A stretch of 64,000 bases of DNA from an uncultured Nitrospinota bacterium (GTDB taxonomy: Bacteria; Nitrospinota; Nitrospinia; Nitrospinales; JAJDAT01), in NCBI GenBank assembly GCA_964344185.1, contig CAYFMN010000005.1:65516-129515 (forward strand), given 5' to 3'. The notes under the pieces are model-generated. The model was not told the DNA's origin, made no database searches, and was given only the letters and a program-made list of their open reading frames with translations. This document shows positions 1,913-64,000 of this stretch, piece by piece. Position numbers and translations under genes: made by a program. The number at the start of each line of letters is the position of its first letter. The first letter of the stretch is position 1.

Positions 1913-1920
1913 AGGTTTTT

Positions 1921-8903: not shown

Positions 8904-8908
8904 TTTAA

Positions 8909-10457: not shown

Positions 10458-10735
10458 AAAATCTCCATGATAACCAATCTGGTGAAACTGGTTATCTCCT
10501 ATAAGAGCCTATTAAATAATAAGTTTTTTCAGGGATTTAACTTCGGAACCTGAGGACAAATTTCTATTTATGAAAATGCTAATATCTACCGAAGTTTCCA
10601 AAGAGTATAAGCGATTGGACCGTTACTTAAAATACTTCCAAAATTGAAATTATCAAAAAAAACCAACTTTTTCAAGGAAGAGGAAAAAACGAAGCACGAT
10701 TATAAAGCTCAACTTAAATATTGAAAATAAAACTC

Positions 10736-16214: not shown

Positions 16215-16298
16215 TTTAACTTAAAAATTTCCCCGCCAAATTAAGGTTGACGCTTCCGTTGACAAAAATCTCCTTAATAAATTCACCTAACTTTTATT

Positions 16299-17951: not shown

Positions 17952-17955
17952 ACGC

Positions 17956-18903: not shown

Positions 18904-19193
18904 GAATACATAAGCTAATCTAACAAATTAACTCAAACTGAAGATAATGAAAGCAGCTAGACTTGAAATATTTTTCAAGGTCTCTAGCAATCTTTTCTGT
19001 CTCGACAACCACATAAGGTCTAGGCTTAAGAGGCAGTAATGGTTTCGTGGAAATTATTTCCCCTTTACCGTGAAACCGTTTAAGCCCGTAAATATTGCAA
19101 TTGGCTAGTTCCAGTACTAAATATTACCAAGCGATCTCTCTAGGATTAATATATTAAGCCAAAGCTGCAGCCCGAAGCGACGAAGAACGTAGG

Positions 19194-19284
<91 letters not shown>

Positions 19285-19349
19285 AATGTGGTATCTCTTT
19301 TAGGAAGGATAAAGATCTCTCGTTCTTTCCCGTTGCTTTCACCCTGCAA

Positions 19350-19436
19350 CGGAGAGAGAGGGATTCGAACCCTCGGTACCCGAATGGGTACAATAGATTT
19401 CGAGTCTATCGCCTTCGACCTCTCGGCCATCTCTCC
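19350..19436 (-). tRNA. tRNA-Ser(CGA), class II, no encoded CCA
   Basis: Reverse complement is GGAGAGATGGCCGAGAGGTCGAAGGCGATAGACTCGAAATCTATTGTACCCATTCGGGTACCGAGGGTTCGAATCCCTCTCTCTCCG. Anticodon loop is CTCGAAA. Confidence 0.9.
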
Positions 19437-19450
19437 AACGAACGAATGAG

Positions 19451-19524
19451 CACGCCCAAGAGGACTCGAACCTCCGACCTTCGGTTCCGCAAACCGACGC
19501 TCTATCCAGCTGAGCTATGGGCGC
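19451..19524 (-). tRNA. tRNA-Arg(GCG)
   Basis: Reverse complement is GCGCCCATAGCTCAGCTGGATAGAGCGTCGGTTTGCGGAACCGAAGGTCGGAGGTTCGAGTCCTCTTGGGCGTG. Stem TCGGT/ACCGA closes the loop TTGCGGA, giving anticodon GCG. A20 is present in the D-loop. Positions 1:72 form a G:U pair. Confidence 0.75.
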
Positions 19525-19647
19525 TTAATATTCGATATAAATTTAACTAAACCTATTTATAAAACCAAGGCTTTGGGAACTAAAATCAAAATGATTCCTA
19601 AGAAACTAACTCTAATTTAAGAGGAAACAACACTCCTACGGAACGTT

Positions 19648-19675
19648 GAGATCTCCCCACTTCGGTCGAGATGAC
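19648..19675. repeat. short intergenic hairpin repeat (GTCAT...GAGATCTC family)
   Basis: gagatctccccacttcggtcgagatgac. Its reverse complement is gtcatctcgaccgaagtggggagatctc, the same design as the copies at 45.2, 45.4 and 63.0-63.3 kb. Confidence 0.5.
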
Positions 19676-19726
19676 GTTAGGGAGTTAGTTCCTAAATCAA
19701 CAAACTAAAAATCCCAATAAAGAGTT

Positions 19727-20326
19727 TTAAGAGACTCCCATAGGAATATAATCGGTCAACAAAATTTCATACCGCTCATGTTCAAAACCGTAAAGTTTGG
19801 GAAACCGCTTAAACGCCCAACCTTCAAAAATCCGTTTGTCCTTTTCATGAACAATAAATTGAACGGCCGGGTTAGTAGGTTCATTACCCAAAGATGTATA
19901 GTATACCTTATCCATCACAAAGTTTGGAAAAAACGCCCCAACAGTAACCGTCAAATCGGAACCAGTCAAAACAAACGACTCGCCTAAATTAACGGTTTTG
20001 ACTTCGGTTTTTTCCTCGTCTTGTTTATCCTTTATTATAAACTTTACGGCTTTCCACTTTCCTTCAACTTCTTTGGGAATTTGTATTGCGCGTTGTTGTT
20101 TTTGATTCTCGGTAATTTCCGGATGATTTTCCACCTCGGTACGCGAACCTTCGGCGTAAGCCGAACTCTCAGCTTTAACCATTGGCTTTGGGGCCATACC
20201 CGGTAAATTAACCTCGCTTAAAGGGATTTCCCTTGGCTTTTGGTTTCTCTTGGCTAAATCCGCTTCCGAACAACCAAAAGAAACAAAAGCGATAATTAAT
20301 AAAAGAGTTTTCAGTCCTTGCATCAA
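19727..20326 (-). CDS. hypothetical lipoprotein embedded in the tRNA array
   Basis: 199 aa with signal peptide and lipobox (LLIIAFVSFGC|SE). No family confidently recognised. Confidence 0.65.
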   Translation of the reverse strand: MMQGLKTLLLIIAFVSFGCSEADLAKRNQKPREIPLSEVNLPGMAPKPMVKAESSAYAEGSRTEVENHPEITENQKQQRAIQIPKEVEGKWKAVKFIIKDKQDEEKTEVKTVNLGESFVLTGSDLTVTVGAFFPNFVMDKVYYTSLGNEPTNPAVQFIVHEKDKRIFEGWAFKRFPKLYGFEHERYEILLTDYIPMGVS

Positions 20327-20347
20327 GCGGTTTTATCCTAAGTTTTA

Positions 20348-20441
<94 letters not shown>

Positions 20442-20470
20442 TTATAATTCTCAATCAATAATAGCAACAA

Positions 20471-20553
20471 CGGAGGGAGTAGGATTCGAACCCACGGAAC
20501 TTTCGTTCAACGGTTTTCAAGACCGCCGCCTTAAACCACTCGGCCATCCCTCC
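20471..20553 (-). tRNA. tRNA-Ser(TGA), class II, no encoded CCA
   Basis: Reverse complement is GGAGGGATGGCCGAGTGGTTTAAGGCGGCGGTCTTGAAAACCGTTGAACGAAAGTTCCGTGGGTTCGAATCCTACTCCCTCCG. Anticodon loop is CTTGAAA. Confidence 0.85.
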
Positions 20554-20679
20554 TTGCTATTTCTTTAGCAATTACAGACCTGGTTCAGTCGATTTTTCTT
20601 TATTTATTTTTTAGTGGCCTTATTTTATATGGAGACCTCTTCTAGGACAATAAAAAAAAACTTTAAATATTCCAATAAT

Positions 20680-21966
20680 TTAAGAACCTAATTCTATTTT
20701 CTTACTCCCTCTCATATAAGATTGAAGCGGTTCAGGAATCATTATCGAACCGTCGGGCTGTTGAAAATTTTCTAATAGCGCCACAAACAACCTGCCAACA
20801 GCCAATCCGGAACCATTAAGAGTATGAACAAAAGCGGTTTTACCATCTTCTTTCTTTTTGTAACGAATTTTTGCTCTACGCGCTTGATAATCGGAAAAAG
20901 TACTGCAAGAAGAAATTTCTCGATACGCGTTTTGACTGGGAATCCAAACCTCCAAATCAAACGTTTTTGCCGCCGAAAAACCAAGATCGCCTACGCATAA
21001 AACCACAACCCTGTATGCCAACCCAAGTTTTTGCAAAATTCCCTCAGCGTTGGCTAACAAACTATCAAGCTCATCAAAAGCTTTTTCGGGTTCTACAAAC
21101 TTGACTAACTCAACCTTATCAAACTGATGTTGACGAATTAACCCATGAGTGTCTTTTCCATAAGAACCCGCTTCTCTTCTAAAACAAGGCGTAAAAGCAG
21201 TGTACTTTATCGGCAACGAGTCTTGACCTAGAATCTCATCGCGATGAAAATTTGTTACAGGCACCTCGGCTGTAGGAATTAAATAATACGGATCGTCGTT
21301 TAATTTAAATAAATCCTCTTCAAATTTAGGTAATTGTCCGGTTCCAGTCATGGATTCGCGATTGACCATAAATGGAGGATACAACTCTTCATACCCGTTT
21401 TCTTGAGTGTGGGTATCAAGCATAAAAGAGGTTAAAGCCCGCATTAATCGCGCCCCTTGCCCCTTAAATACTGAAAAGCGCGATCCTGCCAACTTAACGG
21501 CTCGTTTCATATCGATAATTCCAAGAGCCTCGCCTAATTCCACATGGTTCTTTATTTCAAAATCAAATTGAGGAACTTCGCCCCAAGTTCTAATAATCTC
21601 ATTGGCGGTTTCGTCTTTTCCATCTGGAACAGAATCATGGGGAATATTCGGAATTTCTAACAACGTATCTTGAATTTCTTTTTCGCTCGATTGGGCTTTT
21701 TCATCCCATTCTTTTATGGACGCGTTGATTCTTTTCACTTCTTCCATTTGCGCGGTCGCGTCTTTTCCTTCCTTCTTAAGTTTTCCTACTTCAGCGGAGA
21801 GCGTTTTTTTACGATTCTTCAGAGATTCCGACTCAGATAAAGCTTTTCGTCTTTCAACATCAATCTCAATTAATCGGGAAACTTTTTCGGAGAAACCATC
21901 TCCTCTTCTAGTTAAACGATTTTTTATGTCGTCAGGATTCTCGCGGATTTGTTTAATATCGAGCAT
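20680..21966 (-). CDS. serS: seryl-tRNA synthetase
   Basis: 428 aa. Has the N-terminal coiled-coil arm (MLDIKQIRENPD...) and class II motifs (...FRREAGSYGKDTHGLIRQHQFDKVE..., ...TLNGSGLAVGR...). Confidence 0.95.
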   Translation of the reverse strand: MLDIKQIRENPDDIKNRLTRRGDGFSEKVSRLIEIDVERRKALSESESLKNRKKTLSAEVGKLKKEGKDATAQMEEVKRINASIKEWDEKAQSSEKEIQDTLLEIPNIPHDSVPDGKDETANEIIRTWGEVPQFDFEIKNHVELGEALGIIDMKRAVKLAGSRFSVFKGQGARLMRALTSFMLDTHTQENGYEELYPPFMVNRESMTGTGQLPKFEEDLFKLNDDPYYLIPTAEVPVTNFHRDEILGQDSLPIKYTAFTPCFRREAGSYGKDTHGLIRQHQFDKVELVKFVEPEKAFDELDSLLANAEGILQKLGLAYRVVVLCVGDLGFSAAKTFDLEVWIPSQNAYREISSCSTFSDYQARRAKIRYKKKEDGKTAFVHTLNGSGLAVGRLFVALLENFQQPDGSIMIPEPLQSYMRGSKKIELGS

Positions 21967-28036: not shown

Positions 28037-28198
28037 TGTGGAAAAGCTAGCTAAGTACTCAAAATATAAAGGAAAATTCTATGAATAAATTGTTAGACAA
28101 AATGATACTTTTTTCGGACACGGAAGGATGTAACTTTTTTTACAATATTATACCTTATTTTCCACAAGGATTCACAATTAATTAACAGGTTATCCACG
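28037..28198. promoter_or_regulatory. cluster of four DnaA-box-like 9-mers in the dnaA-gyrB spacer
   Basis: tgtggaaaa at 28037-28045 (reverse complement TTTTCCACA), ttttccaca at 28158-28166, ggattcaca at 28168-28176, and ttatccacg at 28190-28198 (overlaps the dnaA stop). Consensus is TTATNCACA. Confidence 0.4.
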
Positions 28199-29524
28199 TT
28201 CTATTTTTTCGATTAAAGTTTGCACTGACCTGGATATTTCGTTGTTTTCTTTCAATAGCTTACCTATTTTTGTGTGCGAATAAATTACGGTGGTATGATC
28301 CTTCCCACCAAACTCTTTTCCGATCTCCGGTAAGGAGGATTTGGTGCGTTCCCTACACAGGAACATTGCAATTTGTCTTGGAACGGAAATATCACGAGAA
28401 CGCTTCTTGGATTTTAAATCAGAAACCTTTAAATTATAATGAGATGCGACTTGTTTCAGGATGTTTTGAATTGTAAAATTTTCTAAATGATCCTGGGAAA
28501 ACTTCTTGAAGACATTTTTGGCCAAATCCATATTTATAGGTTTTGAAGTAAAAGAAGAATATGCGATTAATCTCAATAGTATTCCTTCCAATTCCCTAAT
28601 GTTTGAGCGGATATTATTTGCTATATAAATCGCCACATCCTCGGATAGATTTATTCCTTGAATTTCTGCTTTTTTTAATAAAATCGCAACCTTAGTTTCC
28701 AAATCTGGAGGTTCCATATCCGCTATCAAACCGCATTCAAAGCGAGATCGGAGCCTTTCCTGAATTTTTTTCATTTCTTTTGGAATCGCGTCGCTTGTAA
28801 TAATAACCTGCTTGTGCGCCTCATATAGCGAATTAAACGTATAAAAAAACTCTTCCTGAGTTCGGTCCTTGCCTTCGATAAACTGAATATCGTCGACTAG
28901 TAGAACGTCTAAAGGTCGGTATCGGTCACGAAAAGCGTTCATACCATCCTTTTTCAATGACTGAATTAAATCGATAGTAAATCCTTCGGTGGAAACATAT
29001 CTGATTTTTAATTTTTTATTTTTTTCGTGAATAGCGTTACCAATAGCATGAAGGAGATGAGTTTTCCCTAAGCCAACAGAACCATAAATAAACAAGGGGT
29101 TATAGGCCATGGCGGGATTAGAGGCCACGGCTTTTGCCGCCGCGTGAGCGAATTGGTTGCAACCGCCCACTACAAAGTTTTTGAAAGTATATTTTTGATT
29201 AAGCGAGGAATTAAAACCTAAATGGTCTTGTTCGTTCGTTTCAATATAGTTGTGTTTTTCATATGAAATTTTTGTTCCGTTTCTTGCGGAATAAACTTTA
29301 AATTTAACGCGAAGCGGAGCTCCTGAAACGGTTTTTAGAGAGTTTTCTATTATATCTAGATAATTTTCTTTCAGGTATTTTTTGAAAAACTCATTGGGTA
29401 CGCCCAGAGTGAAAACCTGGCCGTCGTACGAAATTGGGGAGGTAGGGGTGAACCAGGTGTTATAGTTTTCTGGAACAACCTGATTTACTATTTCTTCTAA
29501 ACATTTGCTCCAGAGAACTTCCAT
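28190..29524 (-). CDS. dnaA: chromosomal replication initiator protein DnaA
   Basis: 444 aa with AAA+ Walker A (GSVGLGKTHLLHAIG), Walker B (LLVDDIQF), sensor region and the C-terminal domain IV HTH (...GGKDHTTVIYSHTKI...). Confidence 0.97.
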   Translation of the reverse strand: MEVLWSKCLEEIVNQVVPENYNTWFTPTSPISYDGQVFTLGVPNEFFKKYLKENYLDIIENSLKTVSGAPLRVKFKVYSARNGTKISYEKHNYIETNEQDHLGFNSSLNQKYTFKNFVVGGCNQFAHAAAKAVASNPAMAYNPLFIYGSVGLGKTHLLHAIGNAIHEKNKKLKIRYVSTEGFTIDLIQSLKKDGMNAFRDRYRPLDVLLVDDIQFIEGKDRTQEEFFYTFNSLYEAHKQVIITSDAIPKEMKKIQERLRSRFECGLIADMEPPDLETKVAILLKKAEIQGINLSEDVAIYIANNIRSNIRELEGILLRLIAYSSFTSKPINMDLAKNVFKKFSQDHLENFTIQNILKQVASHYNLKVSDLKSKKRSRDISVPRQIAMFLCRERTKSSLPEIGKEFGGKDHTTVIYSHTKIGKLLKENNEISRSVQTLIEKIERG

Positions 29525-30313: not shown

Positions 30314-30541
30314 ATGGCAGTAAATTTAATCAGTCGTCCTGACGTAGCTTTAAAAAATAAATCCATTAAAGAAAAGGAAACCGTAATTTCCGAGTATTTA
30401 TCAAAATATCCTGACTCGGAATCTGCGGTAAACGCTGTAAAAACCAAAATAGATTCGGCTCAAGATTTATCTCAGATTAAGTCAAATTTAAACGAGGTAT
30501 TTGCCGAAATTATAAAAGTTATGTATGCCTTAGGAAAATAG
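30314..30541 (+). CDS. hypothetical small protein (75 aa)
   Basis: The ATG is preceded by AAAGGAA. The stop lies 1 nt before the next gene start. No family recognised. Confidence 0.5.
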   Translation: MAVNLISRPDVALKNKSIKEKETVISEYLSKYPDSESAVNAVKTKIDSAQDLSQIKSNLNEVFAEIIKVMYALGK

Positions 30542-30542
30542 A

Positions 30543-30905
30543 ATGTCAAACTCGGAAGCAAATACTGATCGGATTGACCGCATGTCAGTTCGATTAGAAA
30601 AAACAAATGAAAACATAAATGATTTAACCCATGCCGTAACAGAAAATACCGCAGAGATGAAAGAGCTATGTCGAAGAATAGACGGTATTCACAGCACTCT
30701 TTATGGAAATGATGGTATGAGCGGTTTAGTTGATATTGGAAGATTCTCTAAAGAAAAAGTGGAAGAACACGAAACTTTGTTAAGAGGCAAAAATAAAAAC
30801 AATGGGTTAGTCCATGAAGTGCAAATGTTCAAGAGGGTGGCGACATACCTCGGAGGCGGAGGTATTATCGGAGCTTTTTTGGAGTTTTTTAAAAGACAAA
30901 CATAA
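30543..30905 (+). CDS. hypothetical coiled-coil protein with C-terminal hydrophobic anchor (holin-like architecture is speculative)
   Basis: 120 aa. The N-terminal half is charged and helical, and the C-terminus VATYLGGGGIIGAFLEFF is a single hydrophobic segment. Tightly coupled to 30314..30541. Confidence 0.5.
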   Translation: MSNSEANTDRIDRMSVRLEKTNENINDLTHAVTENTAEMKELCRRIDGIHSTLYGNDGMSGLVDIGRFSKEKVEEHETLLRGKNKNNGLVHEVQMFKRVATYLGGGGIIGAFLEFFKRQT

Positions 30906-31221
30906 AATTTTTAGAGAGTTGAAAGTTTTTAGGACGCTTCTAAAAATTGTCATTTTTATTGGCTTGTTATCGCCTAGCCATTGAATTTAAGAGTTAGGCT
31001 CCTGGAAAATCGGAGTTTTTAGAGGTTCCCTTTATTTAAAACCTCTCTGAATATTTTTATGAATTTAAATCTTAAAAGTTTAGAAAATATTTTTAAGCGC
31101 ATTGATTTAAGGTGAAATGCCGTTTGGAGCTTATTGAAATATCGCTTCAAATTTATATCGAGTAATTTTCAATAGGTTCTAGCGGCGTTTTTTTGAAGTC
31201 CTCTGCCATTCAAGGAGGTCT

Positions 31222-32247
31222 TTGTTAACCAAACTTAACCTTCGAGATTTTTTGTCTCGAAGGTTTTTTTATGGAGATGAAGTGATGGCTGTTTTATGCG
31301 ACTTTATTGGGAAATCGGAAAATTTGTCTAATATTTATAAAGAAAAACATATGGAGGTTGATAGCTTTAAATTAACAAAAAATAATAAGTTTAAAGCAAT
31401 AAGTAATTACGATCTTGGAATAAATTTTGTTCAACAAGAATACACGGAAAATAATCAATTTACTTCAGAAGCCGTAGTGAGGGAAGACACGGCAGTTCTA
31501 GCTTGGGGAAAATGGCCTAAAAATTGCGAAAATGGTCGAATTAGTTTCGACTCTGGAAAAAACTTTTTTTACATCATTTCGCGCGAATCAGATAAAAAAT
31601 TGATTTTAGATGGAGTCCCACGAAAAGGAAAGTTTGGTTATTCTATCCGCTTAACTGAATTTGATTTAGGAGAAGTCAAACTTTGCGCGAATAGAAGTTC
31701 TAATTTGAAATTTGAAGAATGGTCGATCAGTTTAGATGAAATTTCTAAAAATGTAGCGAATGAATATGTATCAGTTAGCGATGCCAAAGCTATTTCGACA
31801 GTAACCTGCTCTAATGTAGTTTCCGCTTCAGTCGTGGAAAATAAAGACGCGGAAAGTGTTTATTACTGGTTGGTCTTCTATCTACATCCAAATATCGATG
31901 AAAATGCAGAAGTAAAAATTTTTAACAAAGAGAATAAATTATGGAGAATAATAGCTAGAAGCAGAGCCGGCTTTTGGGAATATAACAATTCGCCTAACGC
32001 TAAAACGGAAACTTGGGTTTTAGCGTCGGCAAATGATTTTCTTCATGCTGTTTCTGAAGCTATATCTTCAAAAAAAGTAAATAGAATGGCAGGAGAAGAT
32101 TTAGTCGGAATAACAGAACAGGAGTGGAGTTTACTGAACGGTAGCTTGGTAGAAGCCGAATACTTTTCTAAAGGCATTACGTTAAATTCCGCAGATCCTA
32201 AAAATAATCCAGCCGTGTCTCAATTTTGCCTGGATTGTGAAAAATAA
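31222..32247 (+). CDS. truncated, diverged paralogue (B) of the tail-fibre-like family, lacking the conserved N- and C-terminal domains
   Basis: Shares several blocks with paralogues A and C: NFVQQEYTEN...WPKNCENGRISFDSG...IRLTEFDLGEVKL, EYVSVSD...VYYWLVF...AEVKIFNKENKLWRIIA...WEYNN, and NDFLHAVSEAIS...NRMAGEDLVGITEQEW...KGITLNS...NPAVSQF. The TTG start sits only 3 nt after AGGAGG, so the true start is uncertain. This may be a gene remnant. Confidence 0.55.
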   Translation: MLTKLNLRDFLSRRFFYGDEVMAVLCDFIGKSENLSNIYKEKHMEVDSFKLTKNNKFKAISNYDLGINFVQQEYTENNQFTSEAVVREDTAVLAWGKWPKNCENGRISFDSGKNFFYIISRESDKKLILDGVPRKGKFGYSIRLTEFDLGEVKLCANRSSNLKFEEWSISLDEISKNVANEYVSVSDAKAISTVTCSNVVSASVVENKDAESVYYWLVFYLHPNIDENAEVKIFNKENKLWRIIARSRAGFWEYNNSPNAKTETWVLASANDFLHAVSEAISSKKVNRMAGEDLVGITEQEWSLLNGSLVEAEYFSKGITLNSADPKNNPAVSQFCLDCEK

Positions 32248-32321
32248 TTGCGCGTCATTCAAAAGAATTTGTCAGATTAGCGGTAAGCCAAAATAATGTT
32301 TCAAGGAAAATTTTTTCGAGT

Positions 32322-32714
32322 TTAACTATTTTCAAGGATAACTTTTTGAATGGTTGGAATTACTTCTTTGATGCTGAGAGGTTTACTAATAAAACCGTTC
32401 ATCCCTGCGTCAAAACAATTTTGCTGATCGCTTTTATCTTCATTGGCGGTCATGGCAATGATTGGGGTTAGTTTTTTCGACGTTTCTTTTTCTAAGCGGC
32501 GGATTTCCCTAGTCGCCTCTAACCCATCCATTTCAGGCATTTGCATATCCATTAAAATTGCGTCGAACTCATTTTTTTGAAACTCTTCGAGAGCCAGTTT
32601 GCCATTTTCGACGGCAACGACATTATGTCCTTTCCGGGTGAGCAACTTTGTCGCTAGGGTTAGATTCAATGGGGTATCGTCGACTAACAATAGTTTTAAG
32701 TTTTCTTGGTCCAT
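32322..32714 (-). CDS. stand-alone response-regulator receiver (CheY-like) protein
   Basis: 130 aa with LLVDD, phospho-acceptor context [12 protein letters not shown], and the T (AMTA) and K (SKP) motifs. Confidence 0.85.
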
Positions 32715-32843
32715 GGCGGCAATTTATTAATAAAAAATAAGCAATTTTAAAGTTAAAAAATTTAATTCGAATTGCTCCCTAATGTTAACACGGGTTTGAA
32801 GGAAGTTGATTGAAAAAACCAACTTTAAAAAATAGAAATAAAG

Positions 32844-33740
32844 TTAGAATGATTTCCAAGCGCCAATTATTCTACCCACTACTGGGTCGGGATATTCTTT
32901 TAAGTTTACGATTTGAATTTGTGCGGAGGGGTTAAGAGGTCGAAGAATCAAGAAACTTTTTCCCACTTCTACATATTTTGCCGTTAAGCCATTTTCATGA
33001 AAGATTGCGTACATTTGATTTTTTTCTATGGTTTTATCATTTCGGTCAATAATTACTATGTCTCCCGAGTGTAATGTAGGTTCCATAGAATCTCCTTCAA
33101 CACGGCTGGCTACAAGGTTATTACGTCGACCTGTGGCGCGGGTATGTAATAAGACATAGTCTTCGATATTCTCATGCTGAATGATGGGTTGTCCCGCCGC
33201 AATAGAAGAATCGGTTAGAGGAATTGAAATATAATCTTCTTGGTTAATTGCGGGGCCTCTTTGATCCGGATAGCTATTGTAAACTTTTAGCTGAGGAAGA
33301 ACTCGCTCTGATTCAGGTTTATCGTCGGTTAATATATTTTGAATTGAGGTTCCCAAACTAGTGCAAATTTTATTTATTAATTCTGTCGAAAATGACCAGG
33401 TCCCTTTTTCATAAAACTCCAAAGAAAGTTCGGGAATATCGATTTTTTGAGCGAGTTTTTTAACGGAAAACCCTTTTTGTTCTCTCAAATTCTTAATCTT
33501 CTTTGCGATTTTTTTATCCCATTGAGAAGATGACTTTTTGCCTGTCAGGAGCCAATTGAAATCCGCATGAAAATATGAAGAAATAGTCAACAATATTTCA
33601 GAAGATGGAACCGTTCTCCGCTGTTTCCATTTTTTAAGAGTGTCGTAGTTAAGATCGGTAACCTGCGAAAAAGATCGCAGAGAATTCCCTTCCAATAATT
33701 GAAAAAACCGATCAAAAATTTCCCCACCATTAAGCTTCAT
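32844..33740 (-). CDS. LexA/CI-like autocleavable repressor: two N-terminal HTH domains + S24 peptidase domain
   Basis: 298 aa. Carries two Cro/CI-XRE-type HTH segments (...LRSFSQVTDLNYDTLKKWKQ... and ...GFSVKKLAQKIDIPELSLEFYEKG...), an Ala-Gly cleavage-site context IAAGQP, and S24 motifs GDSMEPTL (Ser) and GLTAKYV (Lys). Confidence 0.8.
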   Translation of the reverse strand: MKLNGGEIFDRFFQLLEGNSLRSFSQVTDLNYDTLKKWKQRRTVPSSEILLTISSYFHADFNWLLTGKKSSSQWDKKIAKKIKNLREQKGFSVKKLAQKIDIPELSLEFYEKGTWSFSTELINKICTSLGTSIQNILTDDKPESERVLPQLKVYNSYPDQRGPAINQEDYISIPLTDSSIAAGQPIIQHENIEDYVLLHTRATGRRNNLVASRVEGDSMEPTLHSGDIVIIDRNDKTIEKNQMYAIFHENGLTAKYVEVGKSFLILRPLNPSAQIQIVNLKEYPDPVVGRIIGAWKSF

Positions 33741-33760
33741 AAAAACCCATCAAAAAATTC

Positions 33761-33815
33761 TTGACAAAAAGGGACAATTGTCCCATATTTAATATCATGC
33801 GGGGACAAATGTACC
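33761..33815. promoter_or_regulatory. divergent promoter/operator region: TTGACA -35-like hexamer plus two palindromic operator sites
   Basis: TTGACA lies at 33761-33766. GGGACAATTGTCCC at 33771-33784 is a perfect 14-bp palindrome. GGGACAAATGTACC at 33802-33815 matches it at 12 of 14 positions. The operator centres are 31 bp apart. Confidence 0.55.
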
Positions 33816-34053
33816 TATAAATTGCCATAATATCTGGTTACCAAAAATTATTTTGGTTGTTTTCAATTGCCAAACTTATTGTTTTTTGGGTATTTGATTC
33901 GCCAAATACATTATGGCTCAGACTCTTTTAGGAATTATACCATCGATTGTTTTATTGCAAAGGACCTTTATGAAAATATTCGAAATTTTTAGACCAAAGG
34001 TAGGAATGTTTTTAAGAGATTGTCGTATTCCAATTTAATTCAGTTTTTAGAGA

Positions 34054-34077
34054 GGCAGACAACTTCTGCCATTTTTT
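34054..34077 (+). terminator. weak hairpin + T-run upstream of 34101 ORF
   Basis: ggcaga caact tctgcc followed by atttttt. The stem is only 6 bp. Confidence 0.3.
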
Positions 34078-34100
34078 GAAAGAAACATAGAAGTGGTGGA

Positions 34101-34550
34101 ATGCGACGGATGAAAAAATTGAAAATAAGAAGAGATAATTCTGCAATAAATCGTATGCAAATTTGTGGATCGCCTCGAGAAAATAAACAAAAAAGCAAAA
34201 AAGGAAAGGGATGTGGAGCTAGGGGAATGGTTCCAACTGTCGCAGGTTGGAAGTGTCTCTACTGCGGATTTTTTCGTTATTTTCCTCGCGTTGATGAAGA
34301 TCGGTTATGGGCGCACTTTAAGTGGGCTCGGGAATATTGGAAAGCGTACTATTTTAATGGCAATTATTACATAAATGGCTGTCCTGTATCTTTCGGTGTC
34401 GATCCTATTCCGCCATATCTATATGATGATTTAATGGAAGTTGAAACGCCAATTTGGTTTCGAGCCTTTGCTAATTTGGATGAAGATGATTTTGATCAGT
34501 ATCTGGATTTATATACCCGTAGTAGTTATTTTGTGGATTTGAAAGAGTAA
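34101..34550 (+). CDS. hypothetical protein with basic N-terminus and Cys-pair (zinc-ribbon-like) motif
   Basis: 149 aa. Cys pairs occur in QICGSP...KGCGARG...WKCLYCGFF. An alternative ATG lies at 34110. No family recognised. Confidence 0.5.
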   Translation: MRRMKKLKIRRDNSAINRMQICGSPRENKQKSKKGKGCGARGMVPTVAGWKCLYCGFFRYFPRVDEDRLWAHFKWAREYWKAYYFNGNYYINGCPVSFGVDPIPPYLYDDLMEVETPIWFRAFANLDEDDFDQYLDLYTRSSYFVDLKE

Positions 34551-34567
34551 AGCAGGGAGAAAAGTTT

Positions 34568-34912
34568 GTGAAAAAAAAAGGTTTAGATAATTGGAACGAA
34601 GATGAGGCAGTGTTAGATAGTAAACTGCAATTTTTCCAGAATGAGCATTTGGATCTAATGATTCAATCCAGATTGGCTCAATATATTCCCAATAGTGGGA
34701 GTAAAGAAAGTTGCTATCGATATTTGAAAAAAGAGCCTATTGATTTGGAAGACGCAAAATTAACGGATAAACAAATGATTGCTATTAGCTTGGTATTTTA
34801 TGGAAATATCCCGAAATCAAGAGCTGCTCGAGCTATGAAAATTACTTATCAATCGCTGAACGATCATATCAACGGAGCTTTAAAGAAGATCGAAAGAAGC
34901 TTATCTTGTTAA
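34568..34912 (+). CDS. small HTH protein resembling sigma-70 region 4 only
   Basis: 114 aa with a GTG start. LTDKQMIAISLVFYGNIPKSRAARAMKITYQSLNDHINGALKKIERSL matches the L(T/S)xxQRxV..L.Y.....EIA..LG.S...V...L.RA..KL pattern of sigma-70 region 4. Regions 2 and 3 are absent. Confidence 0.55.
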   Translation: MKKKGLDNWNEDEAVLDSKLQFFQNEHLDLMIQSRLAQYIPNSGSKESCYRYLKKEPIDLEDAKLTDKQMIAISLVFYGNIPKSRAARAMKITYQSLNDHINGALKKIERSLSC

Positions 34913-42834: not shown

Positions 42835-42909
42835 TGGCTCCGGAGACAGGACTCGAACCTGTAACACAGCGGTTAACAGCCGCTTGCGCTACCATTGCGC
42901 CACTCCGGA
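42835..42909 (-). tRNA. tRNA-Asn(GTT), CCA encoded
   Basis: Reverse complement is TCCGGAGTGGCGCAATGGTAGCGCAAGCGGCTGTTAACCGCTGTGTTACAGGTTCGAGTCCTGTCTCCGGAGCCA. Anticodon loop is CTGTTAA. Confidence 0.9.
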
Positions 42910-54240: not shown

Positions 54241-55281
54241 TTAAGCCATTTCTTTTTCGGATTGTTCGCTTATCTCGGTAAGTTGACTGGGAGAAAGATG
54301 ATCGGTCAGAATATAATAAATTCCGATAGCGCTAACGATGCCCATATTTAAGGCCCATAGAACCATTCCATAGCTTAAAGCCACCACTTCGTTTTCTCCC
54401 ATAATATGATGGAGCGCCACAGATACGCCTAAATGGAAGGAACCAACAAATCCAGGAGTTGGGAATGCCGCAATGAAAATACAGACCATCACCAACAAAA
54501 TACCCACGGATTCAGGCGATTTATCTTGAAGGTCAAATGCCCAATATAGTGGGTAGTAACTTAATGCGACCAAGAACCAAACGACAGCAGAATAAAAAGT
54601 GATTTTAATGAGGGAATTTTTGTCTTTAACAACTTCGAGTCCTTGATTAAATTTCTCAATCAAAGTTTGAATTTTTTCTCCCCATCCATCCGGCAGTATT
54701 TTAGAAATCCAGGTAATTATTTGGGCAACTAAGTTTTTTTGAAAACACATCATGTAGACAAAGACCGTTAAAATAACAGCCCCAGCACATCCTAAGACCC
54801 CAAATTTAAAAGCGAGTTCGTCTAATGTCATTCCTGAAAACTTGGCTTCCGAGCTAAAAATATGGGAGTTAAAAAGCAATAGCCAGCAAAACAAACCCAT
54901 CAACATAAAAGTATCAAAAATACGTTCCACGACAATAGAAGCAAACGCTCCAGGAAAAGGAACTTCTTCGCGTTTGGCTAATAAGTAAGCTCTGATAAAT
55001 TCTCCGGCCCGAGCGGGTAACATATTTCCCATAAATCCAATCATCAATGGCGATAAAATTTGCGAAGTTTTAACTTCTTTAATAGGGGATAGCAAAATTT
55101 TCCAGCGAATACCGCGAACCGCAAAACTCACGACGACCAGAATGCCCGCCGGTATTAAATAAATAAAATTAACGTCTGAAAAAGAGTCCAAAAGCTCCTT
55201 TAACGAAACGTTTCGAAAAGTAAAATAGATGGCAAGGATGGCGACAACTACGCCAATAATGAATTGTTTTAGGTTTTTCAA
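54241..55281 (-). CDS. polytopic membrane protein, UPF0104 / 'flippase-like' family (second copy in window)
   Basis: 346 aa with ...FRNVSLKELLDSF....Y......L...SF..RG.RWKILL... and 8 hydrophobic spans. Confidence 0.6.
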   Translation of the reverse strand: MKNLKQFIIGVVVAILAIYFTFRNVSLKELLDSFSDVNFIYLIPAGILVVVSFAVRGIRWKILLSPIKEVKTSQILSPLMIGFMGNMLPARAGEFIRAYLLAKREEVPFPGAFASIVVERIFDTFMLMGLFCWLLLFNSHIFSSEAKFSGMTLDELAFKFGVLGCAGAVILTVFVYMMCFQKNLVAQIITWISKILPDGWGEKIQTLIEKFNQGLEVVKDKNSLIKITFYSAVVWFLVALSYYPLYWAFDLQDKSPESVGILLVMVCIFIAAFPTPGFVGSFHLGVSVALHHIMGENEVVALSYGMVLWALNMGIVSAIGIYYILTDHLSPSQLTEISEQSEKEMA

Positions 55282-56894: not shown

Positions 56895-58847
56895 TTAAGA
56901 TTTAGCCTGTAATCCCCACGAGTGTAAGAATTGGTCTTTACCTTGCTCCGTTTCATAACGACAACGTAAATCTTGGCCGGATGCCTGACCAGTTATGTCA
57001 ACAGTTCCACGAAAGATATGCTGATCTCCAATCAACGGAAGACCTTGTTGGGTCATAGGAACGGATGTCCATTCGGAACCGCCGTTTCTGCTGACGTAGA
57101 AATTTCCTGGTCCATCTGAATCAGAATGTTCAATTCGCGACCAAATGTAACCTTCAGATGGAATGAATCCAGGATCATAAGCTTTACTGCGCAAATCCAT
57201 ACCGCTGCGCACAGAGTCGTAATTCAAGCGATATTGGGCTACGAAAGGATTTTGAGAAGAATCGTTAGAGTAAAGCGTTACTCCACGGACTACTGAATTG
57301 ACTGAGTTGGACCATCCGCCGGATTCTTCCCATTGTGCGTCCGTGATAGCCGCGAGATTGGTTCCTGACATGCGATTAGCGGCCTGCACTGAAATAGCTT
57401 GCGATACAGCGTGAAGCATTTCGTTGGTTTCGGCTTGTACGCCGGTGTAATCGTTTGCAGCGCTGCTAATATAGGTATGTGGACTCGTTGGAGGCGTAAA
57501 GTTTGAAGTCCACAGTGCGGATTTAGTAAAACGCACTTCATCGAGCCAACCGTCAAAATAATTTCCGGAAGGGGTCGCAAGAGGTTTAGTGCCTAAGAAT
57601 AATTTACTGCTGCTATGGACGCCACAATCTGCGTCGCCTAAAGGACCGCTGGTAACTTTTAGGATTCCATCTTCAAATATTCTATATAATCGTCCTTGTC
57701 GTACAAACGCTATATGGTACCACTGGCCCGTGGCGAGCGTGGATTCTCTGGTAAAATGAAAACTAAAATTAGTGTGAGAAGGATGAGCATAAGTTAATTG
57801 ATATATATTTCCACTCGCATTAAAGATTTCCCAAGAATCATTTGCAGAATCACCAACCCCTAAAATATTTGATCCTCCACTTGTAGTATTAAACCTAATC
57901 CAAAAATCGATTGTGAAATCATTAGCACCGAAAGAAAAATCGTCCGAAGCAGAATCGGATCGGATATAATCTCCTGTTCCGTCAAACAATAGCGACGATC
58001 CTCCGAACTTACTTTGCGTAGTGTCTATCTGAGCGTTGCCGTAAGTTGTAAAAGCATGTCCTGAAGGTCCGTTATCAATAATTGTTGTACTTGCATCAGC
58101 GCCGTCCCCATGAATCAACAGTTTCGTTGTGTCGTGGATTGCATTGTTATATTCCCAAGTACTGCCATTATTCTTAGCGATAGTTCTCCAAACGGAGCCA
58201 TCTTGGTTGAAGATTTTAATTTCGGTTCCGTCTCCAAAATTGGAAACAGGGTCGAGAGCTAACCAGTAATAGACACTTTGAGAATTAAGCGTTTCTGTAG
58301 CCGAGCCGCTATTAATATCTGACCAAGAGGATGTATCTGTCTTCTGAATTTCAGAATCGCACAGTGAAACATATTCAGAGGCTACGTTTGTCTGATCGGC
58401 TATTAATTCAATTTCGTGAATTCTGCAGTAATCTTGACTCCAAACGGCTGTTATCACGAGGTAATACCACCGAAAATTAGTACTATTAGAAAACGGAATG
58501 GCGGTCATTGGCCCAACTGTAACTGAATCTTCAGAATCATAAATTACTTCTGGAAAATTTGTTTCTGTATGCAATGACGTCGCCCCATTAGCTATTGGAT
58601 TTTGATTTTCTATTGGAGTTGTATTGGATCCGTAGATTTTAAAATCTTTCAAGGAACCTCCACCACTATCCGCAGAACTGTTCAGAACAATTTTGTTAAC
58701 TTTTCGAGCCTCTCCAATATCGATTGCAACCCACCTTAGATCTCCGCCTGTTGATATGCTATACCAAATTGCTGATTCTGTTGATGCACTATCGTTGTCT
58801 ATAGCCTTAGAACCGCCTCCAGTCGGAATGTGCGTTAGAATGAACAA
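56895..58847 (-). pseudogene. tail-fibre-like family paralogue C, downstream (C-terminal) reading frame: discoidin-like + LamG-like + conserved C-terminal modules
   Basis: 650-aa frame with no plausible independent N-terminus. It continues the alignment to paralogue A exactly where 58807..60324 stops. The LamG/ConA-like module (...FGGSSLLFDGTGDYI...FTIDFWIRF...WYHIAFV...LDEVRF) is encoded at about 57482-58142. The C-terminal 250 aa are highly similar to paralogue A. Confidence 0.6.
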
Positions 58848-60324
58848 ACGCGCTTCCAGGGCTAGTTAGATCCCCCGAACTTGGATGGTGATTAAGTTGC
58901 ACAAAACCAGAATCAAACTCGCTCATTCGAATTATGTAGTCAGATGTTCCATTAGCCGCTATGGAAGCCAGAGTCAGCGTCGTGTCTGAGTCTCTGGAAA
59001 GAATATTGTGCCAGCTAGAACCGGAATCAAAACTAATACGACCGCCCGCGCAATTAGTGGGAAAGACACCTGACGATAGTGAAACGGTTGAATTACTTTC
59101 TGTAAATATTTTGAACCATCTATCGTGGCTGGTATTTGATGTAGTAAGCGGGGCAATAGCGGAGCCATCTGCATAAATCGAAGGCGTTGTAGAATCTTGA
59201 TTCCAATAGTTTGAAGCGTCGAAAGAACCGGTTCTACTAATAACGACACAATAATAAGTTCCAGCGTTAACGGTGTATCTTTCACTTCCAGAAAATTGAA
59301 AAGTTACTTCTTCATAAGAAGTTCCTATGGCGCTTCCGCTAACTGTATCAGAAGTCGCTAACAGGGTACTGCCGGCTCCTGTTGCGCTTTGCGGACTTAA
59401 GTTATATAAATAACCTATGAGGTCGTCTGTTGGAGATCCGACTTTTTTTAATTTAAAAACGAATTTATCTAAAATACCGGTAGATTTACAAAGAAATGAT
59501 TGACCGGTATTATCTTGTCCTGCGGCAGTGCCCACAGTCGTGTCTGTGCCGCCTATGAAACTACTTTGATCAACTGATGAAATTTCTATTACTGTAGCTT
59601 GAGATGTTGATTGATTAGAGTTCGTCCATTCCTGTTGAAGATAATTAGATTCTGTATCGTAATTTCTATCAGAAATTAAATTAGTTCCAGGATCGGTTCC
59701 TTTATAGAGCTTGTTTGTGTTGTCATGTTGAAAGCCGGTGGAGTTTGCCTCGTCCGCTCCTTGTTCGTCTGGATTGGAAAAAGAATCGGACCATCCCGCT
59801 TCCATCAGCAACGCTCCGCCATGATTTTCCTGAATCTCATCAAACGCCCTCATGATATTACTTGTATTGACGGAAGTCTGTTCGTTGTCTGTCGTTGAAT
59901 TTGCCAATTGGAAATCGGTTCCGTCGTATACTAAAGTCACTATTCCACTTTCAGGAATATCGCCTTGCTTCAAATCGCTTCCGTCAATTTTTTTTATGCT
60001 CTTTACTCCCAATGAGTTAACGTCGCCGGTGGCGGGACCTGTGTTTGTTGTATGAGCTTTCATGTAAACAAACAAACCCTCGCTCAAAACTGTGGGAGCG
60101 GGATTCAAAGTTACGTTATAAGCCGCTCCAGAGCCGGTGGAATCCGCAAACCAATAAGCGCCTGCCTGAGTGTTTTGATTTAGTTGATCGGCTGATGTAT
60201 ATAAATCGTTTACATCTATATCGATCTTGTCAAAAGAATCTTTGATTCTGGTAACGTCGTCCTCCAGCATATTGTCGGGATGAGGCATTGGATATTCGCG
60301 ATTTACGGTTTTTTGATCGATCAT
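58807..60324 (-). pseudogene. tail-fibre-like family paralogue C, upstream (N-terminal) reading frame
   Basis: 505-aa frame. The first roughly 245 aa are highly similar to paralogue A (MIDQKTVNREYPMPHPDN...SNYLQQEWTN). A paralogue-specific insert of about 170 aa (about 59070-59589) precedes the shared FPTNCAGGRISFDSG...SEFDSGFVQLN block. The frame overlaps the downstream frame by 41 nt. Confidence 0.6.
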
Positions 60325-60348: not shown

Positions 60349-60404
60349 ATCGCCCCTTGTCTTTTATTATCAAAAATACAAGGGGCGATGTGGTTAAGTG
60401 GCGG
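60349..60404 (-). promoter_or_regulatory. hairpin + AAGTGGCGG box element, copy 4 (upstream of paralogue C)
   Basis: ATCGCCCCTTGT (60349-60360) and ACAAGGGGCGAT (60378-60389) form a perfect 12-bp stem with a 17-nt loop. GTGGCGG lies at 60398-60404. On the gene strand the order is CCGCCAC, 8 nt, hairpin, AAAGGAAA, ATG. Confidence 0.5.
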
Positions 60405-60714
60405 AAACGTTTAAGGAAAATTTTTAAAAATTTAAAATTGCAAAAATCTGTTCTTAGAAACAAGACTTGGCTAAATCAAATTATTAAAAATTTCCATAAG
60501 ATAAATAAAAAAAATCTTTTTCGAGCTTTAGAAAATTAAAGTCTAGTTGAGATATTTTTAAATACTCCCTTATATATTGCAGGAAATTTAGGTAAGATTT
60601 TTTTAACTCATTGAAACTTAAGAGAAAATAATAATAAAAGGAGAGGTATGGGCAGAAAAGTTGAATGAATTGGGAAGGGATTATTAATTTATGATTTGCT
60701 AAAAACTTGCCTTT

Positions 60715-62481
60715 TTAAAATAAACCTATAGAGCCGTTTGCATAGACAATACCGTTACTTCTGTCCGACGGATTAGGGCCAGTAATAGGAAGACCGTAGC
60801 TGATTGAAAACGATATTGGAGGACGGTATTCGGAGGTTCCAAACTCGCCGCCCTTGGGAACGTTTATTTGCACGCCAAATCCGGCGCCGGTAATGGATTC
60901 CATTTTTGTTTCCCCGATTAATAAACCGCGAGTAAATACTTTTCCGTATTCAAGGAATCCGGTAAACGATATTATGTCGGCGATAGTGAATTTATCGATT
61001 CCGAAAGGAAATTTGGAAGGAAAGGGCAATACGTATTCAGTAGCTAAGTTATATCCCCAGTCGCCCGATTGCGCCGCTAATGGAAAACCCCGCACCGTGC
61101 CAAAGCCGCCAACAGCAAATTGGTCTGGAGAAAGCGTGCGATTGCTGACCAATTGCGTGTTTGCTTTCCATATAAAATAACTGTTTAGAAAAGGAGTCGC
61201 TTGATATCGAGTTAGATTAACGGAAGTAAGAAAAATATCGGCGCTTCCGTTGACGCGAGAAGGTAGAGCGGCGCTATCGTTGGGGAAAATTCCATATTGA
61301 ACTTTCCAGTCGAAAATATTATTGCCAAGATACGAATCGCTGAAATTGCCGCTAAAGCCAAAATAGATATCGCGAATTACGTCGTTGCTGGTAGTGGAAC
61401 CCAAGGCAAAGTTGACGAACTTTTTATGATCGAAACCCATCCTGAATTTAAGTCCCGAAGTTTTATCTCGCAACAGAGCCTGGGAATATTCCATATTGAA
61501 AAGCCGCGTTCGACCGCCGCCTCTTAGAGCCTCCAAGCTGGCGCCTAAAGTTTGTTCCGAATAAGTATAGCTAAACTTGAGGTTTTTTCTTCCTATATCG
61601 TCAAGCGGGTATTGATAGGAAAAAGTTAAAGACTGCTGGTCTAATTCTGACGCCACTCCGCGAAAGAGAAAAAAATCTCCCAATACCGCAGTGTTTGCGG
61701 CGGTTGCCGTAACCCCGGCCCGGTTGGCTCCCGTAAATTCTGAACCAAAATTATCCACGTCGAAGCTGAAAGAATAAGGGCTGGTTTCGGTAACTTCAAG
61801 AATCAAGTCCGAAGTTCCCGGCTCCTTGCCTGGGCGCAAAATTGATCGAGCTTTGATTCCGGCTAGATCGTTGATTTCAAGGAGGGTTCGTTCTAAAGTT
61901 TCTTCTTTTAGAATATCCTCATCCGCAACAGGTTGCATTCGTTTTAACAGATCTTCTGCTTTGGTTCGTTTATTTTTTTCGATGGAGATTTTGCCAATTT
62001 TTCCTTCGTCGATTTTCATGATCACGGTGTCGTCGATCAACTCTTGTTCCGGGATGTAAGCCTTGGCCAGGAAATAGCCAGCTTGCGAGTAATGAGCGGA
62101 AACTTCTTGCGCCATGAGAGACAACAGGCCAAGAGTTAATTCCAAGCCTTCGGGGCCTAAATCGACAATCGGATCTAGGATCTCGTTGCTAAAAAGAGTG
62201 TTTCCCTCGATCTTTACTTTTTTTACGAAAAATGAAGGACCTGCGCCAGGATCAACTAGTTCTCTACTGTCTTCTATAGTGATGATTTCCGCTTTTTCTT
62301 GAAATTGGGGGTTGAATGGTTTTGGCTGTGATTGCCGCAAAGATTTTTCGGCAATACCGGCTTCACCGGCTGGCGGAATAGCCACTTGAGCCGCGCTGGG
62401 AGCGGTCCATCCAAGAAAAATTAATAATGTGAAAACCAGTAGATTCATCAATCGCTCAATTTTTGGACAAAGATTGGCCAA
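60715..62481 (-). CDS. ShlB/FhaC/HecB-family two-partner-secretion outer-membrane transporter (TpsB)
   Basis: 588 aa with a signal peptide (possible start at Met-12, 62448). Has a POTRA region (FFVKKVKIEGNTLFS...) and a C-terminal 16-strand-type beta-barrel with alternating pattern, ending ...YANGSIGLF (terminal aromatic). Confidence 0.8.
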   Translation of the reverse strand: MANLCPKIERLMNLLVFTLLIFLGWTAPSAAQVAIPPAGEAGIAEKSLRQSQPKPFNPQFQEKAEIITIEDSRELVDPGAGPSFFVKKVKIEGNTLFSNEILDPIVDLGPEGLELTLGLLSLMAQEVSAHYSQAGYFLAKAYIPEQELIDDTVIMKIDEGKIGKISIEKNKRTKAEDLLKRMQPVADEDILKEETLERTLLEINDLAGIKARSILRPGKEPGTSDLILEVTETSPYSFSFDVDNFGSEFTGANRAGVTATAANTAVLGDFFLFRGVASELDQQSLTFSYQYPLDDIGRKNLKFSYTYSEQTLGASLEALRGGGRTRLFNMEYSQALLRDKTSGLKFRMGFDHKKFVNFALGSTTSNDVIRDIYFGFSGNFSDSYLGNNIFDWKVQYGIFPNDSAALPSRVNGSADIFLTSVNLTRYQATPFLNSYFIWKANTQLVSNRTLSPDQFAVGGFGTVRGFPLAAQSGDWGYNLATEYVLPFPSKFPFGIDKFTIADIISFTGFLEYGKVFTRGLLIGETKMESITGAGFGVQINVPKGGEFGTSEYRPPISFSISYGLPITGPNPSDRSNGIVYANGSIGLF

Positions 62482-63420: not shown

Positions 63421-64000
63421 CTAACAACCGCCGCCGCTACTGCTACCGTTGCTGGTAAAACTTGAGACAAAGGTACTTTGAATAGCTTGAGAGAAATCCG
63501 CTTGCTGTTGTTGTGGGACAATTGTCGGTGGTAGCACTGTTTCAACCACTGGAGTTACCACTGTTTCAATCACTGGGGTTACCTCTACCACTGGTGCAGT
63601 ACAAAGCCCAGCTTCTTGCTCGGCTTCGTCGCAAACTCCATCTGCAAATGGATCTGGCTCAACATCGCCTACTGTTATTGTGCCGCTAGCTGTGATATTT
63701 CCTTCATTCGATAGGTTTCCTGGCGTGCTGACAGTAACGTCTCCACCTTGATTGTTAATTTTTATCACTGAAATATCGTCAGTTTCGTTGAAATTGACGT
63801 TCCCAGAAGTTGTATTATCGACGTCAATGGATGCTACTTGGATATCGATCGCGTCATCCGCCGCATTGGCTCCTTTTGAACCGTCATTTCCAATTCCCGT
63901 TACGACATCGATCACCAAGCGCCCAGTTTTAGCTTCGATATCAGGACTACCGGCGTCGCCGTTATCAATAATTCCTCCGCTGGTGGATGTCAAAACCACC
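63421..64000 (-). CDS. C-terminal end of a large beta-helical exoprotein (filamentous-haemagglutinin / TpsA-like), truncated by window edge
   Basis: The frame is open to the window end. It has G/N/D/T-rich beta-helix-like repeats (...DIEAKTGRLVIDVVTGIGNDG...VDNTTSGNVNFNETDDISVIKINNQGGDVTVSTPGNLSNEGNITASGTITVGDV), then TPV(V/I)ETV repeats and a Ser/Gly tail ending in Cys. It lies upstream of and is co-oriented with the TpsB gene. Confidence 0.6.
   Translation of the reverse strand, partial: VVLTSTSGGIIDNGDAGSPDIEAKTGRLVIDVVTGIGNDGSKGANAADDAIDIQVASIDVDNTTSGNVNFNETDDISVIKINNQGGDVTVSTPGNLSNEGNITASGTITVGDVEPDPFADGVCDEAEQEAGLCTAPVVEVTPVIETVVTPVVETVLPPTIVPQQQQADFSQAIQSTFVSSFTSNGSSSGGGC

Follow-up and report, generated by a model that had tools for sequence, protein, structure and literature searches.

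A 64,000-nucleotide stretch of DNA from an uncultured Nitrospinota bacterium (contig CAYFMN010000005.1, positions 65,516 to 129,515; hereafter the window), itself part of a 138-kb metagenome contig, carries three loci, designated A, B and C, that encode related proteins resembling phage tail fibres. The open reading frames (ORFs) of these loci are listed below with coordinates in the window and lengths in amino acids (aa); the module names N1, D, L, M, P and C block refer to the module map given further on.

1921-4176, minus strand: gene A, an intact fibre gene of 751 aa
58807-60324, minus strand: N-terminal ORF of gene C, 505 aa, with N1, D, L, an insert of 160 aa and M
56895-58847, minus strand: C-terminal ORF of gene C in the next frame, 650 aa, with an F5/8 type C module, P, LamG and the C block
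58807-58847, minus strand: overlap of the two ORFs of gene C and site of the frameshift; no slippery sequence is present
31222-32247, plus strand: gene B, a short paralogue; the ATG at 31285 is the likely start and gives 320 aa

A preliminary description of this DNA had presented the three genes as paralogues, and BLASTP comparisons bear this out. Over 267 aa, gene A is 66% identical to the N-terminal ORF of C (E = 9e-117); against the C-terminal ORF it is 75% identical over the last 184 aa (E = 4e-97), and an additional block of 141 aa matches at 49% (E = 2e-34). The N- and C-terminal regions are thus shared by A and C, while B aligned with A over two shorter segments (39% over 165 aa, E = 5e-33, and 37% over 98 aa). 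Gene C had been described as a single gene spanning 56895-60324; what lies there is a pair of overlapping ORFs in different frames. When intact homologues (1197 and 1210 aa) are aligned with gene C, the match passes from one frame into the next at the junction; gene C is therefore frameshifted in this assembly. Of the modules, gene B retains M, P and the first half of the C block. Its counterpart in a relative represented by a 1.18-Mb contig (the JGI relative) is 63% identical, with a ratio of nonsynonymous to synonymous substitutions (dN/dS) of 0.17 and an unchanged stop position. The view that B keeps only two short core blocks holds in so far as it is a short paralogue; it is a conserved gene of about 320 aa under purifying selection and no decayed scrap.

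The modules of A and those that distinguish gene C were mapped as follows.

3991-4176, minus strand (residues 1-62 of A): N1 docking motif
3727-3990, minus strand (residues 63-150 of A): D domain
3442-3726, minus strand (residues 151-245 of A): L linker, the best-conserved part
3187-3441, minus strand (residues 246-330 of A): M
2743-3186, minus strand (residues 331-478 of A): variable module, discoidin/CBM32
2482-2742, minus strand (residues 479-565 of A): P block
1924-2481, minus strand (residues 566-751 of A): C block
59107-59589, minus strand (residues 246-406 of the N-terminal ORF): insert module of gene C, about 160 aa
~58557-58823, minus strand: F5/8 type C module of gene C (PF00754)
~57513-57983, minus strand: LamG module of gene C (PF13385, Laminin_G_3)
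56904-57449, minus strand: C block of gene C

Across the family the variable slot is filled by discoidin, by LamG or by modules without assignment. In gene C the F5/8 type C module scored 28.8 bits against PF00754 (cut-off 28.2) and the LamG module 63.4 bits against PF13385 (cut-off 27.6), and a Pfam search with the insert at 59107-59589 returned no match; this insert recurs in several long paralogues (e.g. P0028, P0033 and P0037). The discoidin signal in A fell below the Pfam cut-off, at 16.8 bits. Foldseek, run on an AlphaFold model of A (the models made were monomeric, with pLDDT values of 64 and 76), aligned its central module with lectinolysin/CBM32 folds (TMt 0.67-0.78, E ~3e-6), and the profile matched PDB entry 7nsn with E = 6e-21. 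The module content proposed in the preliminary description, namely an insert, a discoidin-like and a LamG module in C and one discoidin-like module in A, agrees with these searches. Judging from the CBM32/F-lectin and LamG folds of the central modules, the proteins would bind glycans.

The C-terminal sharing between A and C, previously put at about 250 aa, is real, and its actual form is a near-constant P + C unit of 273 aa (262-273 aa in intact members) within which the LamG module of C is inserted. Where LamG is present in this unit, it always stands at one point between P and C. An exhaustive profile search recovered 777 representatives of the unit, and its first 170 positions recur close to the C-termini of many other proteins; in one remote relative the C unit is followed by a Peptidase_S74 chaperone domain. 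A tblastn search with the unit against 50,697 phage records gave zero matches, and a profile search of the PDB gave nothing significant. By Foldseek, the best E against the PDB was 0.048, that is, no solved structural relative, and the BFVD returned weak matches to viral proteins, few of them named.

The N-terminus is shared by A and C, as the preliminary description had it in speaking of conserved ends, and is swappable across the wider family. Type 1 proteins carry N1, type 2 proteins a coiled coil of about 150 aa for which no match was found among phage records, and type 4 proteins a fourth kind of N-terminus; one fragment has a T7 gp17-type N-terminus (PF03906, E = 5.5e-33). Some family proteins begin directly at D or carry repeats of it. 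P0003, for instance, a 1105-aa protein on a 782-kb JGI contig, has an N-terminal part made up of four or more D domains repeated in tandem. Among type 1 proteins conservation is high: N1 in several relatives is 87-93% identical to that of A, and dN over the first 100 codons of the fibre genes is low (0.03-0.15). Read from the sequence, the N-terminus of A and C is MIDQKTSNRNYPLPH, with no hydrophobic segment, and neither a signal peptide nor a lipobox nor an anchor was found in the fibre proteins.

Relatives with the full architecture were found in phage genomes. On the podovirus contig L027 (IMG/VR), genes for a major head protein, for tail proteins and for internal virion proteins are followed by that of a family member of 845 aa (9740-12277) with the order D-L-M-LamG-P-C, which is 62% identical to A in its best segment. 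A second podovirus contig, L046, from a different sample unrelated to that of L027, carries a terminase, an SU10 adaptor, internal proteins, a homologue (466 aa) of the L027 tail protein and a Peptidase_M15_3 protein presumed to be the endolysin. Judging by size and order alone, its genes of 719 and 348 aa are presumably portal and capsid. At its end lies a distant member of 859 aa (18785-21364) in which all tested modules except M were matched, at 31-39% identity. The D domain (profile positions 56-143) matched PDB entry 9b45, 'gp47 Tail fiber', with E = 2.6e-8, and by tblastn also annotated tail fibres of GenBank phages. Likewise, phrog_20381 and phrog_14493 match fibre residues 2-51. In nine viral contigs of IMG/VR an ORF opens with the N1 motif, and six of these ORFs come immediately after one for a protein of about 1070 aa, where a fibre gene would be expected. 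Scans of metagenome and viral collections, in which the family is rare, added seven loci and one locus, respectively. The kinship with phage receptor-binding proteins, suggested earlier from the cassette-like architecture, is thereby confirmed through the tail-fibre genes of L027 and L046 and the match of D to 9b45. On these homologies the assignment to a true phage tail-fibre family is regarded as secure. The family is restricted to Nitrospinota and descends from the tail fibre of a podovirus group with an SU10-type adaptor.

The genes in the window itself lie in a chromosomal setting. Together with the fibres the window holds gyrA, gyrB (identified by synteny), dnaA, six tRNA genes and genes for the biosynthesis of surface sugars, and the close relatives all occur in Nitrospinota metagenome-assembled genomes (MAGs) or in unbinned metagenome contigs. 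Ten full-length fibre genes are present in the JGI relative and about twenty in MAG OFTM166; in all, more than 50 intact family ORFs of 700-1600 aa were found, most of them in head-to-tail arrays of two to five genes. Locus A lies between genes for surface-sugar biosynthesis and an M15 peptidase gene, and in the JGI relative five fibre genes occupy this place, flanked by the same sugar-biosynthesis genes and by the same 162-aa gene with an aminotransferase gene. Locus C lies between a ShlB-type transporter gene and tatA/ribF; the JGI relative has five fibre genes there, with ShlB adjoining a DUF5649 protein of 5421 aa, and a more distant lineage has five genes with type-4 N-termini. Both array loci recur in at least four other genomes or contigs. 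The earlier term 'dispersed' consequently suits the window, and in relatives loci A and C are tandem arrays of up to five genes.

Fibre orthologues show dN/dS values of 0.11-0.23 with dS varying as a mosaic along the genes, compared with 0.03-0.09 for the flanking genes at similar dS, and the loci are shared by genomes that have diverged to a dS of about 1 or more. ORFs in which the N-terminal motif is fused straight to the last 35 aa of the protein (e.g. L026:4545-4850 and L014:10001-10903) point to recombination, by deletion, between tandem copies. Loci A and C expand into arrays through tandem duplication and recombination. With gyrA, gyrB, dnaA and tRNA genes in the window and housekeeping genes in the syntenic flanks of relatives, no phage or prophage was found to contain the genes, in keeping with the chromosomal setting described before. 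It is secure that the fibre genes of the window are fixed in the chromosome at three syntenic loci, outside prophages, and synteny and purifying selection support their domestication.

Upstream of A, of C and of the M15-like gene downstream of A lies a common leader element.

4201-4261, minus strand: leader of A, with CCCGCCAC at 4254-4261, a hairpin at 4201-4247 and the ribosome-binding site (RBS) AAGGAA; dG -14.1 kcal/mol, z -2.65
1852-1913, minus strand: leader of the M15-like gene, with TCCGCCAC at 1906-1913, TAAACTAGA and a hairpin at 1852-1900; dG -28.7 kcal/mol, z -5.4
60349-60405, minus strand: leader of C, with TCCGCCAC at 60398-60405 and a hairpin at 60349-60389; dG -25.6 kcal/mol, z -5.7

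The element consists of an A-rich stretch, the motif (T/C)CCGCCAC, TAAACTAGA, a hairpin of 11 bp, a TATAAATA-like stretch and the RBS AAGGAA. Motif and hairpin together precede the M15 gene and all type-1 fibre genes examined, excluding the first gene of each array; these first genes and a 75-aa gene of the B cassette (see below) have the motif without the hairpin, about 31 nt ahead of the start codon. Compensatory changes were seen in 6 of the 11 base pairs of the hairpin, and the unit is also present in L007, L008, L012, L023 and L026. Rfam returned six tRNAs and no other known RNA family in the window, and a simple scan did not call the hairpins as terminators. For A, sigma-70-like sites were seen only about 270-310 nt upstream of the start. 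The element may accordingly be either a promoter with a 5' stabilising stem-loop or a leader/attenuator downstream of a sigma-70 promoter. The predicted folds allow the motif's UCC to pair with GGA in the RBS, which makes translational control possible. By its distribution, the leader would join fibres and peptidase in a single regulatory set. The tRNA genes lie at 19197-19524, 20353-20553 and 42838-42909, and a further copy of the TCCGCCAC octamer, at 19193-19200, is the 3' end of the tRNA at 19197-19284 and probably a coincidence.

Two further groups of genes accompany the fibres, namely the M15-like gene at locus A and a cassette around gene B.

1343-1831, minus strand: M15/LAS-type peptidase-like (endolysin-like) gene, 162 aa, directly downstream of A; true start at 1831
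30314-30541, plus strand: 75-aa gene of the B cassette, with a homologue after the L027 fibre gene and after the C-locus arrays of relatives
30543-30905, plus strand: 120-aa protein of the B cassette, with a coiled-coil region and, at the C-terminus, a hydrophobic segment
32322-32714, minus strand: stand-alone response-regulator receiver protein of the B cassette
32844-33740, minus strand: CI/LexA-type repressor with a helix-turn-helix and an S24 peptidase domain (phrog_4, E = 6e-37)
34101-34550, plus strand: 149-aa Cys-containing protein of the B cassette
34568-34912, plus strand: 114-aa protein with a sigma-70 region-4/UPF0251-like DNA-binding domain, a candidate activator

Relatives have counterparts of the M15-like protein with 90-91% identity and dN/dS of 0.04-0.09. 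The protein in the window matched the endolysin family phrog_894 weakly (E = 1.5e-6, PHROG), and searches of Pfam, NCBIfam and the PDB gave no match. The motifs S.H..G.A.D and H.D, read from the sequence as SLHYDGLAADLH and GLHLDD, resemble those of the M15_3 endolysin of L046. With gene B, the cassette comprises seven phage-derived genes (30314-34912) beside dnaA (28190-29524), and it is syntenic gene for gene in the JGI genome, again next to gyrB-dnaA, where synonymous sites are saturated. All seven proteins are 63-90% identical between the two genomes, and dN/dS is 0.03-0.17 in the six with estimable dS. The 120-aa protein, 87% identical in the relative with dN/dS of 0.03, weakly matches a 94-aa protein of L027 (E = 2.8e-4) and is a holin-like candidate by its position only. 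L027 likewise has a receiver protein beside its fibre gene.

Around the array loci, genes for the cell surface are prominent. Directly upstream of A lies a surface-sugar/glycosyltransferase block (4647-18903) with DegT aminotransferases, a GFO/IDH oxidoreductase, a hexapeptide transferase, an epimerase, GT2, PMT_2-like and LPG_synthase_TM; a second LPG_synthase_TM gene is found near C (54241-55281). Next to C, a transporter of the ShlB/FhaC type of two-partner secretion (TPS; 60715-62481) adjoins the end of a DUF5649 protein (63421-63999), and the pair ShlB + DUF5649 always stands beside the C-locus array. The fibres were considered as a TpsA substrate of the adjacent ShlB and rejected as such, having no signal peptide and no Pfam TPS domain; this ShlB most likely serves the adjacent giant protein.

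Virion genes next to family members, apart from those of the two podoviruses, were found with type-2 fibres, whose genes form arrays of three or four downstream of virion genes of podovirus type in contig 6 of OFTM166 (L009/L019) and in the 59.8-kb contig k127_97997 (L037) from the metagenome of the window. These virion genes are homologues of the tail protein and internal virion proteins of L027, and no heads were seen. In L037 a TPR protein sits between fibre genes.

The reading that we favour, with somewhat less than even confidence, is that the genes encode a set of domesticated fibres that bind glycans, dock on a particle of phage type and are released when the cell lyses. It is preferred because the docking end is strongly conserved, an export signal is lacking, and lysis-type genes are co-conserved and share the leader. 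The proteins, which have no signal peptide and would for that reason be made in the cytoplasm, may assemble into fibres whose strongly conserved N-terminus docks onto a tail or particle of phage type with its genes elsewhere; this particle could be a resident element of phage origin or one of the lineage's phages. Exit would be by lysis; candidate agents are the endolysin-like M15 peptidase, conserved together with the fibres, and the small proteins derived from phages. The array would provide a repertoire of specificities for surface glycans. It is also possible, if somewhat unlikely, that the genes form a co-regulated chromosomal fibre library, with no structural genes alongside, supplied in trans to phage-type tails, either as specificities owned by the host for a resident phage-derived particle or as decoys that take over the docking site of infecting phages and spoil the progeny, with the dnaA-side cassette as its switch; the S24 repressor and the small sigma-region-4-like protein would then make up that switch.

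Several observations count against docking and lysis-dependent release. Capsid, tail and baseplate genes were found neither in the 64-kb window nor within 10 kb of the type-1 arrays of relatives, and a docking partner for N1 was not found in these genomes. The preliminary description had correctly seen no capsid, terminase, sheath or baseplate gene in the 64 kb, and no structural-gene cluster lies near the fibres; the tailocin- or GTA-like particle that it proposed (GTA, gene transfer agent) would call for such a cluster, and a particle is something we infer. The TCCGCCAC motif is absent from the intergenic regions of the podovirus L027, which also leaves a reading of the motif as a phage promoter unsupported, and is likewise missing in arrays of types 2 and 4 and in the L045 B cassette. 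The M15 assignment is weak, being drawn from one weak PHROG match and from motifs recognised by eye. Finally, the N-terminal type varies by lineage at one locus (type 4 in L005/L038, none in L004/L017), which is unexpected for a single, stably domesticated particle. Because the N-terminal types change wholesale between lineages and the structural cluster is missing, two other explanations, as lectins and as decoys, keep some weight.

The proteins could be free or cell-associated lectins or adhesins, active in aggregation or particle attachment and independent of any phage-type particle, like the MAT fibres of Bdellovibrio. We consider this unlikely. Tandem expansion and the swapping of lectin modules fit an adhesin repertoire, as do the positions of the arrays amid cell-surface genes (sugar biosynthesis at A, ShlB with the giant DUF5649 protein at C) and the failure to find a structural cluster, and the MAT fibres offer a precedent (PMC10769870). 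However, MAT proteins have a signal peptide and an N-terminal domain of their own, beta-rich and of about 130 aa, ahead of variable C-terminal tips, and many have an S74 domain (PMC10769870), whereas the fibres of the window begin with MIDQKTSNRNYPLPH and carry no signal peptide, lipobox or anchor. The surface lectin or adhesin offered as the alternative in the preliminary description is weakened by this, and also by the most likely assignment of the adjacent ShlB to the giant protein. Furthermore, the virion-docking N-terminus is among the best-conserved parts of the fibres, which would be hard to explain if nothing were docked.

An anti-phage role, in which host fibres bearing the docking module of phages now in circulation enter progeny virions during infection as decoys or assembly poisons and mis-target or cripple them, with the M15 protein perhaps adding premature lysis, would account for the wholesale replacement of the N-terminal adaptor at one locus, a pattern to be expected where the partner is a phage that evolves. 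Recombination is suggested by mosaic dS blocks, and the N-/C-terminal fusions show deletions between copies; fibres and a lysis-type enzyme stand under one leader element, and the neighbourhoods of surface genes are, in our view, typical of phage-host interaction islands. We nevertheless hold this role to be quite improbable: no PADLOC defence model matched the fibres or the genes beside them, no precedent exists, and phage induction lacks support because the leader motif was not found in L027, the sole available phage contig with a close relative. Very unlikely indeed is the explanation that the genes are inert debris of an old prophage, or artefacts of assembly or binning. The frameshift in gene C, the deletion derivatives such as L026:4545-4850 and L014:10001-10903 and the phage-like small genes close by would agree with debris, but the intact long ORFs number more than 50 and evolve at dN/dS of 0.11-0.23, the same loci are occupied in genomes at dS of about 1 or more, and the contig of the window carries gyrA, gyrB and dnaA. 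Conservation in place under purifying selection thus largely rules out inert debris.

Compared with known systems, the podovirus fibres (L027 and L046) are homologous over nearly the full length, in D, L, the lectin module, P and C, and represent the ancestral form; the solved fibre 9b45 is matched by D. The genes of the window differ from them in lying outside a phage genome, in the N1 docking module, in having their own leader and in forming chromosomal arrays that are conserved across species. With the MAT proteins the family shares a chromosomal, multigene, phage-fibre-like character, one conserved end, swapped lectin-type modules and about 20 copies per genome; it differs in the missing signal peptide, in having both ends conserved and the variable modules internal, and in its tandem arrays. 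Membership of the MAT superfamily was rejected, the N-terminus MIDQKTSNRNYPLPH being without a hydrophobic segment. In the accessory loci of the Rhodobacter GTA and in the pyocin regulon of Pseudomonas (PrtR/PrtN), genes for fibres and lysis that derive from phages are likewise scattered over the chromosome. The likeness is one of layout only, comprising scattered fibre and lysis genes, a possible shared promoter element and an S24-type repressor with a small activator; here, in contrast, no head or tail cluster was found, the motif is not linked to the B-cassette regulators and the fibre loci are multi-copy. Phages with branched tailspikes, such as CBA120 and phiK64-1, carry multiple receptor-binding proteins and resemble the present arrays in combining tandem fibres and a common docking module with different binding modules. 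This likeness to multi-receptor phages extends to the type-2 arrays of three or four genes that follow podovirus-like virion genes in L009/L019 and L037, whereas type-1 arrays adjoin no virion genes.

Nitrospinota are the main nitrite oxidisers of the ocean, and to our knowledge almost nothing is known of their phages and their cell-surface biology; a literature search yielded no paper on Nitrospina/Nitrospinae tail fibres or on this fibre family. The family gives a direct handle on both, and it identifies the tail fibre of their podoviruses, which the hosts have preserved, amplified and diversified over a long period, synonymous divergence between genomes being saturated. If a host-controlled particle or an anti-phage role proves true, it would be a new type beside tailocins, GTAs and MAT fibres, and the bounded modules, constant ends and swappable lectin cassettes would then be a scaffold for engineering binding specificity. 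A library supplied in trans would, in either version, be a new way of domesticating phage receptor-binding proteins. Even if the proteins are adhesins only, they form a large unannotated family that makes up, by our estimate, about 2-3% of some genomes.

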